A DNA stretch of 15,114 nucleotides from a bacterium. Its GTDB lineage: Bacteria > Zhuqueibacterota > Zhuqueibacteria > Oceanimicrobiales > Oceanimicrobiaceae. The DNA lies in assembly GCA_046757025.1 (NCBI GenBank), contig JBHHXN010000127.1, positions 1 through 15,114 on the forward strand. The letters are read 5' to 3'. The position numbers and the translations under genes were made by a program. Positions 7,681 through 15,114 of this stretch are shown one piece after another. Numbering within the stretch: position 1 is the stretch's first letter; each line of letters opens with the position of its first letter. Under the pieces are notes generated by a model, which searched no databases, was not told the DNA's origin, and was given only the letters and a program-made list of their open reading frames with translations.

Positions 7681-9480
7681 TCAACCCGTCACTTTTCTCA
7701 CCATGGCCCGTCCCACAAACCGGAATTTATCGCCCAGTGCAAACCGTTTGAGCACGGTTTTTACCACCCCTTTGGTAAACCGGGTGCGTTTGGAATAATC
7801 GATTTTCACATCCACGATCACGGGTTGGCCCTTAGCAGCAAGTTTCAGTGCAGTGGGAATCACGGTATCGAGCGCGTCATTCTGCTGGATTTCCAGAAAA
7901 GCCGCGCCGGTGGCCGTGGCGATACCTACCAGTTTAATTTCGCCAAGAACCGTGCAGACCTTACGGTTGTACGGTATTTCCTGGCCTTGCGAAATTTGCG
8001 AAAGCTCGCCGTCATGAAACACGAAATACACCACCCCCACATTGTGCGTGGCGGCGGTCAGAATCTCCAGACCGGTCATCAAAAAAGCGCCGTCGCCCAC
8101 AATACCCACCACCTGCTTTTCAGGATTCGCAAGTTTGGCTGCGATAGCCGCAGGTACGCAATATCCCATACAATTAAAATCCGTAGGTAAAATGAAGTGT
8201 TTCGATTGATAAACTGGAAATAGCTCGGCGGCTAAATAAGTGTGGTTGCCATCGTCCACCACCGTGATTGCCTCGTCATCCAATCTGGCGCGAAGTTTCT
8301 CAAAAAACAGGGCGGGATTTACGGCATCTGCCATGACATGCTTTTTCCATTCGTTCAGGTAAGCCGCTTTGTCCAACTGAATTTGGTTTCGCAGAGGTCC
8401 TTTTTGCCGCACAGGCTGAAAGCCGTCATCTTTAAGCGCCTGCAACAGAGCCTGCAAAACCGCAGCCGCATCGCCGGCCAGGCTCACTTTAGCAGGATAA
8501 TTTTTATCGAACACAGCCGGGTCGATATCGATGTGAATGTGATTCTCCGGTACGGCTACACCGAAACTGCCGGTTGGAATTTCGCTGAAGCGGGCGCCCA
8601 CCGTCAGCAGGCAATCGCAATCTTTGAAGGCGTTTTCAGCCGCGGGAACGGAATGCCGGCCGAATCCCATGCCAGTATGCAGCGGGTGATTGGCTGGAAA
8701 GACGCTCAAGCCCTGCAGGGTGGTAGCCACCGGCACCTCCAGTAATTCCGCTAATTCAATCACCAGCTCTGGACAGTCCCGGCAGCCCCAGCCGAGAAAC
8801 AAGCCCGGCGATTTTGCAGCTTTGAGCAATTCGACTGTCTGCTGAATCTTGGATACATCTACGATGGTTTTCTCTTCCACCGGTTGAAATGTCGGCAGAA
8901 CCCCGACCTCGCCTTTGAACAACTGAATATTCACGGGAATTTCCACAAACACCGGGCCCGGGAATCCAGAAGTCGCCACTCGATACGCCTCAAAAATGGT
9001 CGGCACGATCTGCTTGTGGTCTTCGATTAAAAACGTCTTTTTAGTCACACCGGCCAGAACCCGATGTTGATCCCATTCATGCAGTTGATAGGATTTGTCG
9101 AGATCGCGACGAATCCCGCCGCAGATGATGAGCATGGGAATGCCATCGAGATACGCCTCACCGATGCCGCTCATAGCGTGGGTGACGCCGGCAGCCGGCA
9201 CGATTACCAGTGTTCCGATATTATTGGTCGTACGGCTGACGGCATCGGCCATGAATGCCGCACCGCCTTCGTGCGTCACCAGTACCGGCTGGATCTTCTG
9301 CGATTTGTTCAGCTCGTCGTAAATCTCTGTGTTGTGAACCCCCGGGATTCCGAAGGTGTGGGTGACCGGCAACTGCTCAAGGGCATAAACACACAAAAAG
9401 GCACCGGTTTTTTTGAGCGTTTTTTTTGACGTACTCTCCACTCTCTCTTCTGCTTTACTCATTTCATTAGTCGTTTGCAT
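7681..9480 (-). CDS. Thiamine-diphosphate-dependent enzyme, acetolactate synthase large-subunit-like
   Basis: FGIPGVH, THE (catalytic Glu), PGPVFVEIP, MGYCVPAAIAAKLA, GDGAF ThDP-binding motif. ATG 9480 is preceded by AGGAGG, so it is preferred over 9531. Confidence 0.9.
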   Translation of the reverse strand: MQTTNEMSKAEERVESTSKKTLKKTGAFLCVYALEQLPVTHTFGIPGVHNTEIYDELNKSQKIQPVLVTHEGGAAFMADAVSRTTNNIGTLVIVPAAGVTHAMSGIGEAYLDGIPMLIICGGIRRDLDKSYQLHEWDQHRVLAGVTKKTFLIEDHKQIVPTIFEAYRVATSGFPGPVFVEIPVNIQLFKGEVGVLPTFQPVEEKTIVDVSKIQQTVELLKAAKSPGLFLGWGCRDCPELVIELAELLEVPVATTLQGLSVFPANHPLHTGMGFGRHSVPAAENAFKDCDCLLTVGARFSEIPTGSFGVAVPENHIHIDIDPAVFDKNYPAKVSLAGDAAAVLQALLQALKDDGFQPVRQKGPLRNQIQLDKAAYLNEWKKHVMADAVNPALFFEKLRARLDDEAITVVDDGNHTYLAAELFPVYQSKHFILPTDFNCMGYCVPAAIAAKLANPEKQVVGIVGDGAFLMTGLEILTAATHNVGVVYFVFHDGELSQISQGQEIPYNRKVCTVLGEIKLVGIATATGAAFLEIQQNDALDTVIPTALKLAAKGQPVIVDVKIDYSKRTRFTKGVVKTVLKRFALGDKFRFVGRAMVRKVTG

Positions 9481-9482
9481 TT

Positions 9483-11105
9483 TTATCCTCCTGCGATGGC
9501 GTTTGCTGCGATTCTGCCGGTTAGAACACAACTACCCAAAAAGGTTCCTTCCAGCGAACGTTTACCATGAATGCCCCCGCCGCCAAAGCCGGCGGCTTCT
9601 CCTACTGCGTACAGCCCGGAAATGGCGTGACCATTTTTGCGCAACACTCGGCACTTAAGATCCGTTTGGATGCCGCCCAGACTTTTGCGGCTCAAAATAA
9701 ATTCCCGGATGGCAATCAGCGGCAACGCTTTGGGATCCAAGATTTTTTGGAATTTGCACAGCCGCATTCGGTCACCGCGATAACTGCGAAAATTCGTGAG
9801 TCGACGCAATTGCTCGTCGTTGAAAAAGCGAACGCCGCGCTCGATTTCAGCATCGTATGCCGCTATTTCATCAGTCAGCAGATCAGCGTCCACCTGATAT
9901 TCGTTGTCCAGTTCATTCATTTTACGGGCGAGCTCGGCAACAGAATCTGCGGTGACGAAATCCGGTGACTCATGAAGCAAGCGCTGCACCAGTTTTTTGT
10001 TGCCAAACACGACATCCAGAATCAAACGCAACTTCTTTTTTTCACGAAAAGCGGTCATGTAATCGCTGCCCGAAACCGCCAGCTCTTTGACTGCAATTTT
10101 CCAGTTGAGAATTTGCCAGGAATATTGACCTGGCTGCTTGCAGATTTGCTCAACCAGATAGCGCGTATCCGTGTATCCCACCAGCGGTGGCGGGCCGATG
10201 CGCTTGCCCAGCGCATTCATCCACAACGCCGAACGCGGCGGCACCAGACTCAATCCGTGTTGCCAGCGCTCCGGCTTTGGGTGAGGAATGCCCGCGGCGT
10301 AGTGCCACTGTCGATCGAGATGCGTGACATTCCCTCCTGCTTCCTCCACCAATTCATGCAGCATACCATCGGCATATCGATGCGAACCGTTCAGTATGGT
10401 TTTCGGCGGTTCCCCCCAATCACGGTTCCAGTAGCTGCGCACTTTGCTCAAATCGCCGCCGCAAATTCCGCCAGCAGCCACCACCACCGCTTCACCAGTT
10501 GCAGAAAATGCTTCCTCGTTTGCTTCCAGAACGCCAGCACAGCCGGTGATGGCGCCATTTTGCATAATCAGATCATTGACTCGATGCCCAAATTTCATCT
10601 GCAGGTTTTTTCTTTGTGGATGCCGTTCGAGATGCGCCAGGATGGATTCGACCATGCCGCGGCCCGTGCCCCAGGCAATATGCCAACGCGGCACGGAATT
10701 GCCGCGATAGAACATGCCGCGTTCCGGCCAGTTCACTACCGGCAAAAATTCCACCGACTTCTCAGTTAACCAGTTAAAGATGTACTCCAACGAGCTGTAT
10801 ACATACATTTCAGCCCACTTGCGTGGCCAGTGATCGGCAGCGTCAAATTGGGCGTAGCTCAACCAATCAGATAGCGCCAGCTCAGGCTGATCGCGAATGC
10901 CGGACTTGCGCTGCATTGGCGTATCCACTATCATGATGCCGCCGAAAGACTCTTTAGCAAGACCGCCAAAATTTTCCTGCCGGTCGCGGTCTAAAATGAG
11001 CACGTTTTTACCGTATTCTAACAGCTCATACGCGGTGACAATTCCCGCCAGACCGCCGCCAACGATGATCACCTCTGCGGAATAGTGATTTTTGCTGCTC
11101 GACAA
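9483..11105 (-). CDS. FAD-binding dehydrogenase (FAD_binding_2; KsdD/fumarate-reductase flavoprotein-like)
   Basis: IIVGGGLAG Rossmann motif, GGLAKESFGG, NSVPRWHIAWGTG, RKSLGGIQTD, GLYAVGEAAGFGGGGIHG, LEGTFLGSCVLTGR; TTG start. Confidence 0.9.
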   Translation of the reverse strand: MSSSKNHYSAEVIIVGGGLAGIVTAYELLEYGKNVLILDRDRQENFGGLAKESFGGIMIVDTPMQRKSGIRDQPELALSDWLSYAQFDAADHWPRKWAEMYVYSSLEYIFNWLTEKSVEFLPVVNWPERGMFYRGNSVPRWHIAWGTGRGMVESILAHLERHPQRKNLQMKFGHRVNDLIMQNGAITGCAGVLEANEEAFSATGEAVVVAAGGICGGDLSKVRSYWNRDWGEPPKTILNGSHRYADGMLHELVEEAGGNVTHLDRQWHYAAGIPHPKPERWQHGLSLVPPRSALWMNALGKRIGPPPLVGYTDTRYLVEQICKQPGQYSWQILNWKIAVKELAVSGSDYMTAFREKKKLRLILDVVFGNKKLVQRLLHESPDFVTADSVAELARKMNELDNEYQVDADLLTDEIAAYDAEIERGVRFFNDEQLRRLTNFRSYRGDRMRLCKFQKILDPKALPLIAIREFILSRKSLGGIQTDLKCRVLRKNGHAISGLYAVGEAAGFGGGGIHGKRSLEGTFLGSCVLTGRIAANAIAGG

Positions 11106-11234
11106 TTTAATTTCTCAGTACTTAATAAATAATATTTGTTTCCAGTTAAAAGATGTAGCAATAGACAATAACTGCCAATAAATAAGTATTAAGACCTTAT
11201 TCTATTGTAAAACTTGAATTGATTATTAGGCGGT

Positions 11235-11277
11235 GCCCCCCCTTTGTCCCCCCTCAAAGGGGGATTCAGAGGGGGGC
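11235..11277. repeat. GC-rich REP-like hairpin (CCCCC…AAGGGGGATT…GGGGG type), possible terminator or RNA-stabilising stem
   Basis: gccccccctttg-tccccc-ctcaaa-ggggga-ttcagaggggggc folds into one long stem within AT-rich intergenic DNA. Confidence 0.65.
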
Positions 11278-11345
11278 TGCACAAATTCTTATCAAAGATA
11301 TTTTAAACCGAACGTTCGTGAATAAATATATTTCAAAAGCGGAAC

Positions 11346-12476
11346 TCAACGCCCAAACTCATCTATTACCCTTTTCAAATGATCATCATATTTTACCGAC
11401 ATTTCCTGCCAGTCATATTTTTTTACTACCGATTGTAAACAATTATTTTGCAGATGGTCACGATTTTCAATAATGTAAACCAATTGCGCCACCAGCTCAT
11501 CAAAGCCGTGATAAAAATATTTTGCATGCAGCTCAGTTGGAATCAGCTCTGGATAAGCCAAACGTTGTGGCAGAACTGGCCAACAACCACAGTACACAGC
11601 CTCCACCACGCTGGCGCCAAAAAAATCCTGGTGGGAGGTCACGGGCAAAATGTCTGCGCGCCAGAGCCATCGGGCGTACTCAGCGAAATCTTCCACAAAA
11701 CCAAATTGCACCACTTTGCTACCGAGTCGTTTTCGCCCTTCCTCGAATTCTGCCGGCTGCTGGCTGAAACACTCCCCAAGCACCGCGACCTCGAATTGCC
11801 AGCCCTCCTCTGCCACCGCAGCAAGCGCCTGAAAAAACTCGGTGGGATTTTTATCGAACTCCCAGCGGTGATTCCAGAGAATTAGCGGCCTGCATGATTT
11901 CGAATGTGGGTTGGCGCGCTCAATATTATATTTATCGAATCGCCTCAGATCCAGACCCAGTGGCAAAACCTGACTTTTGCTTCGAATCAAGTCCATATTT
12001 TCTAATTCCCGGTGATCAGGGAAATGCTTCAGAAAACGCTGCAACTCTTCAAAAAAAGAGTCTTTGTGAAAAGACGAATTAAAAAAAACCGCATCAGCGG
12101 CCAGCGCGCTGGCGTAGTTGATAAATCCGTAGTGCCGGTCGCGTTGATGAACAACATCGCGATCATTTGGCGACCAGGGGTAGGTCAACTGGTTTTCGTG
12201 GAAGTAAAGTGCCACTGGCAGGTCAGCGGTCATTTGCCTGGTTAAAGTCAGAAACGTAGTCAGGTCAAGCATATCCGTTGCCAGCAGCAGATCGGGTTGG
12301 AAGTTCGATTCAAAAAATTGCCGGGCCAGAGAAACCGCGCCGCCGTGCATGCGCCATTTCCAGAATTTGCCAGACAAGCTCAGTATTTCAACCTGGTGCT
12401 GACTGTGCTCAACATACCCCTCAGCCCAGGCCTTATGGGAGCCGGTAAAATAGGGTTCGAGTATTAATATTTTCAC
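11346..12476 (-). CDS. DUF3524-containing GT-B glycosyltransferase (GTDC1 / tRNA-queuosine alpha-mannosyltransferase-like)
   Basis: LEPYFTGSH..W, KWRM.GGA, YFHENQLTYP, N..SALAAD.V.FNS.FH, ILWNHRWEFDKNP..FF, HQDFFG.SVVEAV.CG..P.LP.RL.YPE motifs; GTG start. Confidence 0.88.
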   Translation of the reverse strand: MKILILEPYFTGSHKAWAEGYVEHSQHQVEILSLSGKFWKWRMHGGAVSLARQFFESNFQPDLLLATDMLDLTTFLTLTRQMTADLPVALYFHENQLTYPWSPNDRDVVHQRDRHYGFINYASALAADAVFFNSSFHKDSFFEELQRFLKHFPDHRELENMDLIRSKSQVLPLGLDLRRFDKYNIERANPHSKSCRPLILWNHRWEFDKNPTEFFQALAAVAEEGWQFEVAVLGECFSQQPAEFEEGRKRLGSKVVQFGFVEDFAEYARWLWRADILPVTSHQDFFGASVVEAVYCGCWPVLPQRLAYPELIPTELHAKYFYHGFDELVAQLVYIIENRDHLQNNCLQSVVKKYDWQEMSVKYDDHLKRVIDEFGR

Positions 12477-12891: not shown

Positions 12892-13194
12892 TCAAAAATC
12901 AGTAGCGTCAAAGATATTTTTGTTTATCAGAATCTCATTGTATTGCGCACCATCCATCGGACAATTTAGCAAATCAATTGCCTCTGAGTTTTTGTCAAGC
13001 TTTAATTGCTTTCGTATAAGTAGCAACAAACTTTTGCCTAATTCCTTCTCTTTCTTGGAATGTGAGAAATATGTATAAGCTCCGGTCTCTTTTCCTTTGT
13101 GTTCATGATGAAAATATATGTGATGGCTATTTTCTACCTTACGGAATCCCTTCTTAGACAAACTCTTCATAGCCTTTCGACGGTCAATTGCCAT
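12892..13194 (-). CDS. HicA-like toxin (dsRBD-fold mRNA interferase)
   Basis: Basic 100-aa protein with L.KKGF…NSHHIYF (equivalent to the HicA GSH catalytic His), then T.FSH…ELGK.LL..I.KQL. Confidence 0.68.
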   Translation of the reverse strand: MAIDRRKAMKSLSKKGFRKVENSHHIYFHHEHKGKETGAYTYFSHSKKEKELGKSLLLLIRKQLKLDKNSEAIDLLNCPMDGAQYNEILINKNIFDATDF

Positions 13195-13637
13195 TAAGAA
13201 GCCTCTTCAAAAAGCTGTTCGTAAATCTCTTTCAGTTTTTTTGCCTGACCTGTTACTCTATCCCAGGTAAGCTGTTTGTAATGTTTATAGAAATAAATAA
13301 CGTGCTGGCAAAAATCCTCAATTGCTTCTTGTTCGTTATCTCCAGAAGCATAGATTTCAAGAGATTCATTTTCAGCGAAATAGGTACCATTTTCTCTGGT
13401 AATCACAACTTCGATTGGTTTAAATGAATAGACTTTTAGACCTGTAGCTTTGAATTGCCATTTCGGAAATGTTTTCGCCCAAGTTCTCTGCAAATATTCT
13501 TTAGGATCAAAATCAACTGCGGTAGATTCTAATGAGTCAACCTCATAATCACCAAAAGGAATATCGAACTTTCTACTTCTTATCCAATCGTAACTATCTT
13601 CAATATCCTGGTAGGCTTGCGCATTAGCAAAATTCAT
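13194..13637 (-). CDS. HicB-like antitoxin (partial RNase H fold) with ~70-aa N-terminal extension and no C-terminal DNA-binding domain
   Basis: PIEVVITRENGTYFAENESLEIYASGDNEQEAIEDF..H matches the HicB-N pattern (strand-strand, A.G.T.EEA helix); acidic; TAATG overlap with the HicA-like gene. Confidence 0.62.
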   Translation of the reverse strand: MNFANAQAYQDIEDSYDWIRSRKFDIPFGDYEVDSLESTAVDFDPKEYLQRTWAKTFPKWQFKATGLKVYSFKPIEVVITRENGTYFAENESLEIYASGDNEQEAIEDFCQHVIYFYKHYKQLTWDRVTGQAKKLKEIYEQLFEEAS

Positions 13638-14341
13638 ATTTTTTCACCTCGTAGATATTGTCTATATTTTTCAGTGATGGACTTTTCAAATAGTGCACGA
13701 GCTTCGACGTGAGCTTGTTGCACATTCTTCTCAATGTTCTTTATCGACAAGTTTTCTTTCATACCGAAATCAATGTCCAAAATAAATACTTCGTGACAAG
13801 TTTTGGGTTCGCTTGCTGTTTGAAGCTTTGTCGTAATGGATCCCTCTTTTATTCTTGTCACAAAAGTCATGTCTAAATTCTCAAAATCCGCACCGTTTGT
13901 GTTTGGAAAGTCCAGTTGAAAGTTAAAGAAATCGGCTAAAGGAACCAATCCACCTTCTCTACCAAACGGGATCACATTGATATATCTCCAACCCAAACGA
14001 GTAGGTTCTTGGATTTCATATGTGCCTAAGAGTGCTTTCCAGGAATTCAAGAATTCGCTTATAAACTTCTTATGACCTTCGTACTTTTTATCATAGTGAG
14101 AGAATTTGTCAATTGATAATAATATTCCCGCGTCATTTTCCACATTTTCAAATCTATATTGCAATAAAGCTGGAGCACCACCACCAGGAGGAAGATATGG
14201 AACTAAAATGTTTGGATACTTTTCTTTAATCCTCCCATAATAATCGTTTCTCCGGCATTCTATTTCCAAATTCCGTTGAAAACGTAGTTCACAAACCACC
14301 TCGATCAATGGTGAATTAAGGTAAACTTCATTTAGATTCAT
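13634..14341 (-). CDS. TIGR04255-family-like protein
   Basis: Y.NSPLIEVVCELRF N-terminus, Y..HK.F, R.GWRYINVI, FILDID, AH..AR.LFE.SITE. ATG 14341 preferred over TTG 14383. ATGA overlap with the next gene. Confidence 0.8.
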   Translation of the reverse strand: MNLNEVYLNSPLIEVVCELRFQRNLEIECRRNDYYGRIKEKYPNILVPYLPPGGGAPALLQYRFENVENDAGILLSIDKFSHYDKKYEGHKKFISEFLNSWKALLGTYEIQEPTRLGWRYINVIPFGREGGLVPLADFFNFQLDFPNTNGADFENLDMTFVTRIKEGSITTKLQTASEPKTCHEVFILDIDFGMKENLSIKNIEKNVQQAHVEARALFEKSITEKYRQYLRGEKI

Positions 14342-14694
14342 ACTTGATCGATTATTGTTGGTTATACGTATATATGTGCTCAATGATAGTCAAAACACAC
14401 AAAATAATCAACACATTTCTTCGCACTACTCGTAACCGGAATAAAATTTTTCGATATATCAAAAACGTCCAAAGAGTACAATTTCTTCAATCCGTGTGGA
14501 TTCGATGGATGACTTGAGCTACTAAGAAATAGATTCAATCCAAAATTCAATAAGAAACAGGGTAGAACGTGAAAAGAAATACGCCTCTGTTTCAACAGCT
14601 TTAAAATGTGTTAGATATCCAAATTATTTATGATAATTTTGTCCCAACTAATTGTTTTCTACTGAATTGGTCCATGGAATAGACCATTAATGAA

Positions 14695-14994
14695 TTATCT
14701 AAGTTGAACCCCACATTTTGAACAGAATTTTGGATTAATGGATTTCCCAAGATATTTTTCACAGGAATGACATCTCCAATTTATAAACGAAAAAATAAGT
14801 GCCCCAACTACTGCTGCGAAACCAATTACAAATACTATATTATTCGGGAGTCCAAAAAAGTTCGATTGTGGATTATCACCAAGCCAAATTATAATAATAA
14901 AGACTAACACCAATGGTACAGAAACCATAATCTGACGCGTTCTGTTGGTTCTGAATTGACTTGCCATTCGTTGGTCTAATGTTTTGATTTCCAT
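14695..14994 (-). CDS. Small membrane protein with two TM helices and a C-terminal CxxC…CxxC zinc ribbon
   Basis: GGAGG RBS, two hydrophobic segments, WRCHSCEKYLGKSINPKFCSKCG. Confidence 0.75.
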   Translation of the reverse strand: MEIKTLDQRMASQFRTNRTRQIMVSVPLVLVFIIIIWLGDNPQSNFFGLPNNIVFVIGFAAVVGALIFSFINWRCHSCEKYLGKSINPKFCSKCGVQLR

Positions 14995-15114
14995 CCCTTC
15001 CTCCGAATTATTAATTTATTCAAGTTTCGCAGTTGTGTAATCAATTGTTTTGTAGTGCATTTTCTTAACCGGCATTCACATAATTCCTTATAATAACTAT
15101 CGTTAGAGAAATTC

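Follow-up and report, generated by a model that had tools for sequence, protein, structure and literature searches.

Positions 12892 to 14341 of the window (the whole 15,114-nucleotide stretch of DNA that we analysed) hold three minus-strand genes, encoding in order of translation a TIGR04255 protein, a likely antitoxin and a putative HicA-like toxin. The first-pass annotation had described the genes as translationally coupled through two stop/start overlaps, and both overlaps can be read directly in the sequence. The features are as follows.

13634..14341, minus strand: gene 1, a TIGR04255 protein of 235 aa counted from an ATG (ORF call, NCBIfam)
13645-13650, within gene 1: Shine-Dalgarno-like GAGGTG (sequence)
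13634..13637, minus strand: gene 1/gene 2 overlap, ATGA stop/start (sequence)
13194..13637, minus strand: gene 2, a likely antitoxin of 147 aa, pI 4.7 (ORF call, profiles)
13449..13529, minus strand: antitoxin residues 37-63, predicted TIGR04255-binding segment (complex prediction, conservation)
13275..13439, minus strand: HicB-N-like core of gene 2, residues 67-121 (HHalign; weak match to PF12910, E 7e-4; weak match to 3k6q, E 0.25)
13192..13196, minus strand: gene 2/gene 3 overlap, TAATG stop/start (sequence)
12892..13194, minus strand: gene 3, a HicA-like putative RNase toxin of 100 aa, pI 9.5 (Pfam, alignments)

An alternative TTG start at 14383 would extend gene 1 to 249 aa. The -4 overlap recurs among relatives, linking the first and second genes in 43 of 86 pairs.

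The operon is indeed more AT-rich than 7681-12476, as had been remarked, with a GC content of 0.361 versus 0.508 for that block and 0.472 for the genome; when the genome was cut into 3925 tiles of 1450 bp, 0.6% of them had a GC content as low as this, which suggests horizontal acquisition. The stretch is present in four public DNA runs, all from one hydrothermal-vent study, and in no RNA dataset among the runs listed. One public metagenome contig covers 12855-14852 with 2 differences; its run is possibly the window's own source, so the contig shows only that the operon assembles in one piece. In metagenome runs X3 and X4, contigs about 90% alike to the gene 2 region (13306-13663) represent a second related copy in the same samples.

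A Pfam scan placed a glycosyltransferase and a small membrane protein next to the operon. The glycosyltransferase (11346-12476) matches QTMAN_N, the N-terminal domain of tRNA-queuosine alpha-mannosyltransferase, at E 5e-64, here in a bacterium. The membrane protein (14695-14994, 99 aa, strong RBS) probably has two membrane helices, ends in a CxxC zinc ribbon, matches no family above cut-off, and was not seen upstream of related operons. It sits just inside a dispersed repeat, AT-rich and about 130 bp long, whose end lies at 15010-15114. The repeat has 43 other BLAST matches in the genome, many of them at the ends of contigs, and its depth in metagenome contigs is high; it is possibly an IS end or a MITE. 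The repeat looked like an integron site, an identity we rejected on finding no copy in either gap flanking the operon.

Identity of the three proteins

Gene 1 bears out its assignment to TIGR04255, scoring 103.7 bits against a cut-off of 30 over model positions 2-249 of 252 (NCBIfam), and is the only family member found in this genome. The AF2 model (pLDDT 96.6) contains two strand-strand-strand-strand-helix units, and the protein (pI 5.9) is thus predicted to form a two-repeat curved alpha/beta sheet; the two halves align to each other with an HHalign probability of 2%, so the two-repeat reading is based on predicted secondary structure only. Fold matches of the model all have Z below 8, the top ones being guanido kinases (Z 7.7, 7.6 for McsB and 7.4, with 173-186 residues aligned at an rmsd of 3.8-4.7), followed by spermine synthase/AdoMetDC (7.0, 6.6), a Rep initiator (6.8) and TBP (6.5). 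Foldseek gave E about 1e-3 and TM about 0.3 for the TBP and Rep-initiator matches, and the C-terminal half alone matched START-like folds at Z up to 5.9. SecB was not among the matches listed from the whole-model and C-half searches, in which Z reached at most 7.7. In addition, PF02556 (SecB) matched none of 111 TIGR04255 members at E 0.1, and HHalign of the whole protein and of its halves gave at most 1.2% with SecB, compared with 98.6% for a positive control. The suggestion that TIGR04255 might be SecB-like is thus not supported by sequence profiles, while the middling fold matches listed leave a SecB fold possible.

Other searches with gene 1 returned little. PDB sequence and profile searches gave no significant match; the ESM Atlas clusters matched were all TIGR04255 or hypothetical, and the C-half led to one unnamed 143-aa cluster at 0.88, no more than a lead. 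A single-protein query found no relatives in viral contigs. PADLOC models matched 0 of 87 members at E 1e-3 and, among 111 members, produced only two unrelated single matches. We found no paper on TIGR04255 (CHP04255) in a literature search that had most subscription papers outside its scope.

Gene 2 consists of an N-terminal extension (73 residues before the core in our extension comparison), a HicB-N-like core and a short helical tail. The core (about residues 66-121) aligned with a HicB N-terminal profile at an HHalign probability of 88.5% (E 2.7e-6, 56 columns) when a broad alignment was used and 41.8% with a narrow one, in line with the HicB-N-like fold first read from the sequence; the profile is thin, built from 5 sequences whose source locus is a pair labelled HicAB-like by eye, standing before a SecB-family gene. 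The protein has no Pfam match above cut-off and no significant match in PDB searches. No RHH or HTH family was matched in Pfam at E 1, and just about 26 residues lie beyond the core. The C-terminus belongs to the conserved core and the extension is N-terminal. We came across no longer, fused form of gene 2, a weak negative.

Gene 3 matches HicA_toxin (PF07927) at E 3.8e-5 with 24.2 bits, under the cut-off of 27, and one of four scanned homologues (P0168) lies barely above it at 27.2; alignment with a single HicA sequence gave an HHalign probability of 1%, and PDB sequence and profile searches from gene 3 had no significant match, the profile search recovering no solved HicA structure. In HicA toxins the catalytic histidine is conserved and located at the start of strand 2. 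The earlier reading had rested the HicA-like assignment on an SH motif. The assignment stands at this sub-threshold level, while the S23-H24 pair proved not to be conserved in close homologues; H25 (codon 13120-13122) and S44-H45 are the invariant residues, in 15 of 15 close homologues. Both histidines are missing in two of 16 wider homologues. Beyond the HicA region, gene 3 carries a helical, CP-containing C-terminal part of about 35 residues. Judged from its sequence, gene 3 is likely a divergent HicA-like RNase toxin. Some related toxin genes are broken: L032/L151 has an internal TGA, and in L150 the gene is interrupted.

A family of operons with exchangeable components

TIGR04255 is not rare: among the genomes searched it was found in 24 of 167 from the window's phylum and, for two other phyla, in 43 of 401 and 51 of 301, compared with 0 of 14 controls. 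From searches that each contributed at most their best 30 loci, we retained 82 with a full TIGR04255 gene and at least 900 bases downstream. A coupled small second gene follows in 76 of these and a third gene as well in 74. The same rule applied to ORFs of 220-300 aa in this genome, a control that takes in spurious ORFs, found a second gene at 97 of 847 and a triplet at 30 of 847. The eight non-triplet loci (L006, L007, L023, L034, L044, L048, L087, L090) are mostly cases of start calling or distance. The proposal that TIGR04255 is a dedicated third component is thus upheld by its recurring linkage to toxin-antitoxin-like pairs, a linkage whose absence would have spoken against the proposal. 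The operon turns out to belong to a large modular family, in which unrelated proteins also fill the first-gene slot; the first-pass annotation had noted neither point.

The third gene is highly variable, with 84 examples falling into 19 clusters. Among cluster representatives, Pfam cut-offs were passed by PIN (7 loci in three clusters, 3 of 3 representatives), PemK (2 loci) and DUF7689 (6 loci); HEPN (10 loci) and HicA (6 loci) matched weakly. By eye we labelled 31 loci as ART-like, which have no Pfam match and a weak PDC-M32B match, and 19 loci plus 2 fusions as MazF-like from a QxCD motif, again with no Pfam match. The QxCD family (170-230 aa; L010, L011, L026, L040, L041, L062, L066, L079, L080, L090), which also lacks a PDB match, is by its sequence a candidate new toxin family. 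PDB searches with two other third-gene families gave no significant match.

In a quickly built tree with 91 TIGR04255 proteins, the 8 third-gene labels require 15 changes where the minimum would be 7, indicating that toxin-antitoxin units have repeatedly been swapped behind the same first gene. Swapped toxin-antitoxin units have likewise been reported for SecB in toxin-antitoxin-chaperone (TAC) systems, in the available part of the source (PMC3581621). The 11 HicA-type TIGR04255 proteins form one side of a branch with support 99. In two loci of one genus (L014, L016), the TIGR04255 protein continues into a fused antitoxin-like tail of about 130 aa, and a QxCD-family gene follows directly; three further apparent fusions (L038, L042, L092) were rejected as long upstream frames. 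With TIGR04255 at the head of operons containing so many unrelated toxin-like genes, it probably represents a safety catch or infection sensor of a new type in toxin-antitoxin systems.

To view the arrangement from the toxin side, we examined 37 loci from alignment searches with gene 3 and classed 30, leaving out three at contig edges, one with no match, a near-duplicate that was interrupted, and two (L131, L145) upstream of which no ORF was found. TIGR04255 is the first gene in 11 loci, another gene takes its place in 8, 8 are solo pairs, and in 3 the antitoxin is fused to another domain. Five of the eight other first genes are mutually similar and DUF3467-like (an assignment by weak Pfam matches, best E 4e-5), one is similar to these by eye only, and two are unrelated. 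The DUF3467-like genes (106-124 aa; L124:380-721, L126:539-913, L127:573-902, L138, L142, L148) are coupled upstream of an antitoxin and HicA-like pair whose antitoxins have long N-terminal extensions, making them a candidate second partner family for the slot; the literature search described above gave no relevant account of DUF3467. The slot is also filled by an 83-aa protein (L125:603-854) and a 151-aa protein (L146), and in L135 and L136 the antitoxin core follows about 275 extra residues in a protein of 353 aa. One DUF3467-like locus, L124, nests inside a starred clade of TIGR04255-linked toxins, a swap of partner.

Antitoxin extensions are longer where a partner gene is present: 62-80 residues precede the core with TIGR04255 (n=11) and 59-103 with other first genes (n=8), giving 59-103 for all partnered antitoxins (n=19) versus 37-51 in solo pairs (n=8). 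Independent tree contrasts for this pattern number only 2 on starred, well-supported branches (sign test p 0.5) and 5 on all branches, and with alternative starts the extensions of three solo antitoxins could reach 54, 54 and 66 aa (the last in L143).

A predicted complex and the switch it would serve

When gene 1 and gene 2 were submitted to complex prediction, the median score was 0.69 and the best control reached 0.02; among reference cases, a score of 0.69 was attained in 116 of the 157 solved complexes and in 2 of the 215 mismatched pairs, a calibration that is approximate here since the prediction was fed with custom alignments. The runs share at least 80% of contacts, with a partner pLDDT of at least 74. 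In the model, the antitoxin contacts TIGR04255 through residues 37-63 of its extension and through some of its core, with T39 predicted to meet E18 and D191 and F57-P58-K59-W60 to meet TIGR04255 residues 124-137 and 225-229. The predicted interface pairs conserved residues of both partners: position 39 is Ser or Thr in 16 of 17 aligned close homologues of the antitoxin and P58 is present in all 17, and E14, E18, R20, Y87, R115, R119, Y120, N122, D189, D191, H211 and F218 are conserved in gene 1. TIGR04255 is accordingly predicted to bind the antitoxin extension within its conserved groove. The groove residues E18, R115, R119, D189 and D191 are kept in 11 of 11 members of the HicA branch, whereas across 91 TIGR04255 proteins E18 is found in 47, D191 in 71 and H211 in 51. 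Invariance within the branch and variation elsewhere are as expected of a binding site with partner specificity.

The reading towards which we lean is that the operon is a chaperone-dependent toxin-antitoxin switch, in which TIGR04255 clamps the extension of the HicB-like antitoxin until it is displaced by stress or by a phage protein. TIGR04255, translated first, would capture the N-terminal extension as it emerges, and the antitoxin so stabilised would hold the HicA-like RNase neutralised. A competitor would free the extension from TIGR04255, and the freed antitoxin, being unstable, would be lost, releasing the toxin and shutting off translation. The gene order fits this model, as synthesis of the chaperone would precede that of the antitoxin, whose N-terminal extension would be the first part off the ribosome. 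The instability of unbound antitoxin, its loss upon competition, toxin release and translation shut-off are proposed by analogy with TAC systems; for CmdTAC and HigBAC, phage proteins have been shown to act as competitors (PMC11618068, bioRxiv 2024.02.24.581848).

The same predicted contacts could be read differently, with TIGR04255 as an enzyme that sets antitoxin stability by modifying or cutting it at Thr39, for instance by phosphorylation, instead of a passive holdase. Guanido kinases do head the fold matches, and the conserved Thr39 is predicted to lie against E18 and D191 in a groove lined by Arg, Asp and Glu. Z values under 8, however, may reflect a mere common arrangement, HHalign gave at most 0.23% against 26 McsB sequences, and the groove residues differ between subfamilies, unlike a fixed catalytic site. 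We consider an enzymatic role improbable.

Another possibility is that TIGR04255 binds nucleic acid through a TBP-like saddle, stands in for the antitoxin's missing DNA-binding domain and represses the operon together with the antitoxin. This would agree with the TBP and Rep-initiator fold matches and with an antitoxin devoid of RHH or HTH, whereas the HicB antitoxins of TAC systems have an RHH, according to the accessible part of one report (PMC3581621). It is hard to reconcile with the acidic pI of TIGR04255 and with a conserved face that the antitoxin extension is predicted to occupy; moreover, of 53 inverted repeats, the 25 longest included no clear operator palindrome, and promoter-like sites are at chance frequency (13 vs 10.2 +/- 3.2). 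A regulator of this kind seems very doubtful.

Genes 2 and 3 might instead be a self-sufficient HicBA-like pair, with TIGR04255 a passenger exerting no control, as might be suggested by the 30 classed loci, 8 of which are solo pairs and another 8 of which have a different first gene. The shorter extensions of the solo pairs, the triplets at 74 of 82 family loci and a predicted complex that passes its controls all speak against this, and we give it very little credence.

The phage trigger, taken alone, is the step of which we are least sure, and we would put its chances slightly below even. The three-protein mechanism could serve a general stress response or selfish addiction instead; this alternative overlaps our preferred explanation, since the mechanism is common to both and the trigger alone differs. 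Consistent with a role outside defence, HicA-type loci are flanked by ordinary genes, the window's operon itself has metabolic neighbours, and TAC of M. tuberculosis is described as stress-responsive in the part of the source seen (PMC3581621). The neighbourhood check for defence islands gave a mixed picture. In 16 loci with flanks of about 5 kb (5 HicA-type and 11 picked for long contigs; 122 of 159 ORFs scanned), the raw count was 6 with RM, AbiE, Hma or PDC neighbours, 2 ambiguous (L188, L197) and 8 with no clear defence neighbour, all 5 HicA-type loci being among these 8. One triplet (L190:5044-6837) lies between hmaA and hmaB, another (L189) adjoins type I RM and AbiE genes, and a copy on a Rhizobium plasmid has a ubiquitin-like/ThiF gene cluster alongside. 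A ShosA match (L183) and a DndA match (L192), which we take to be a likely DprA and a likely cysteine desulfurase, were excluded as defence evidence in themselves. In the portion of the DefensePredictor supplement available, two TIGR04255 proteins carry the label 'Predicted novel defense gene', in 2 of 8 occurrences (PMC13092281). Together with the modest phage defence of the similarly built three-gene system DS-42, discussed below, the RM, AbiE, Hma and ThiF-type neighbours argue against a purely non-phage function, which we regard as unlikely, if well worth keeping in mind.

Comparison with known systems

HicAB type II systems resemble the window's operon in pairing a basic HicA-like protein bearing a conserved His with an acidic partner that has a HicB N-terminal-like core. 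Unlike in HicAB, the antitoxin here is encoded before the toxin, lacks RHH/HTH and has a long N-terminal extension, the toxin has about 35 extra C-terminal residues, and a third coupled gene is present.

DS-42 (PRO1), found by DefensePredictor, comprises a 238-aa hypothetical protein, a 190-aa hypothetical protein and an effector, and gave a -log EOP of 1.1 with smaller plaques on Bas1, as far as the accessible text goes (PMC13092281). Like the window's operon it has three genes, and its first protein shows a similar strand/helix pattern, a likeness compared by eye only; its effector is described in that text as an MBL-fold hydrolase, unlike the HicA-like gene 3. Our reading would offer a candidate mechanism for DS-42, for which the accessible text gives none. 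HEC-07 and RnlA/LsoA join an AdoMetDC-like or TBP-like alpha/beta domain to an RNase toxin, according to the available part of the source (bioRxiv 2024.01.29.577857), and the fold search with the TIGR04255 model gave Z 7.0 for spermine synthase 3c6k and 5.0-5.3 for LsoA/RnlA. In those systems, however, the domains are fused in the toxin chain, and the resemblance is at fold level only (Z < 8, with no PADLOC match). The PADLOC candidate PDC-M32 has weak matches in the family, PDC-M32B to one third gene of the ART type (E 8e-5) and PDC-M32A to one cognate second gene (E 1e-4); this likeness concerns another branch of the family and not the HicA-like pair, and no TIGR04255 protein matched PDC-M32.

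The closest parallel is offered by TAC systems, exemplified by M. tuberculosis HigBA-SecB, HicAB-SecB, MqsRAC, HigBAC and CmdTAC. In the parts of these papers available, the chaperones described are SecB-like only and are encoded after the antitoxin (PMC3581621, PMC5105189, PMC11618068, bioRxiv 2024.02.24.581848). A helicase acting like a TAC chaperone is mentioned elsewhere, with TIGR04255 absent from the accessible text (PMC13069673). With most subscription papers outside the search, we found no non-SecB TAC among the literature matches listed from 2023 on, and no description of the present three-gene TIGR04255 design.

TAC and TIGR04255 operons have in common three genes, one partner family that occurs with unrelated toxin types including HicA, a sporadic distribution, and an antitoxin extension, which here is predicted to be partner-bound. 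They differ in that the TAC partner is SecB, whereas here it is a 235-aa two-repeat protein with no detectable SecB similarity; in that TAC antitoxins carry their tag at the C-terminus and the window's antitoxin its extension at the N-terminus; in the RHH of the TAC HicB antitoxin, which the window's antitoxin lacks; and in the TIGR04255 slot, which, unlike in TAC, is also filled by at least one other family (DUF3467-like). The order toxin-antitoxin-chaperone becomes partner-antitoxin-toxin here and in relatives, confirming the reversal that had been noted at the outset, and SecB-type loci used as controls (L107-L113, L119; MqsRA-, HigBA- and HicAB-like by eye) show the toxin-antitoxin-SecB order. 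Because three defining features of TAC fail, namely SecB homology, gene order and the C-terminal tag, we do not class the operon as a TAC.

More tentatively, TIGR04255 may found a second class of chaperone-addicted toxin-antitoxin systems, one that evolved independently and is SecB-free, mirror-ordered and N-terminally tagged. It would be a plug-in sensor of phage proteins that serves at least six unrelated toxin types, DUF3467-like and other small beta-rich proteins would be interchangeable sensors, and DS-42 would be a validated member; as a whole, this proposal is possible but falls short of being probable. Should TIGR04255 do the work of a chaperone with another fold and in mirrored order, a large set of sensor-toxin modules would have been missed so far. 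For the uncharacterised TIGR04255 family, the analysis provides a testable role and names the residues on which to begin: T39, E18, D191 and H25. Taken together, the operon likely works like a TAC although it is not one, and if TIGR04255 does the chaperone's job with another fold and a mirrored layout, chaperone addiction arose more than once.
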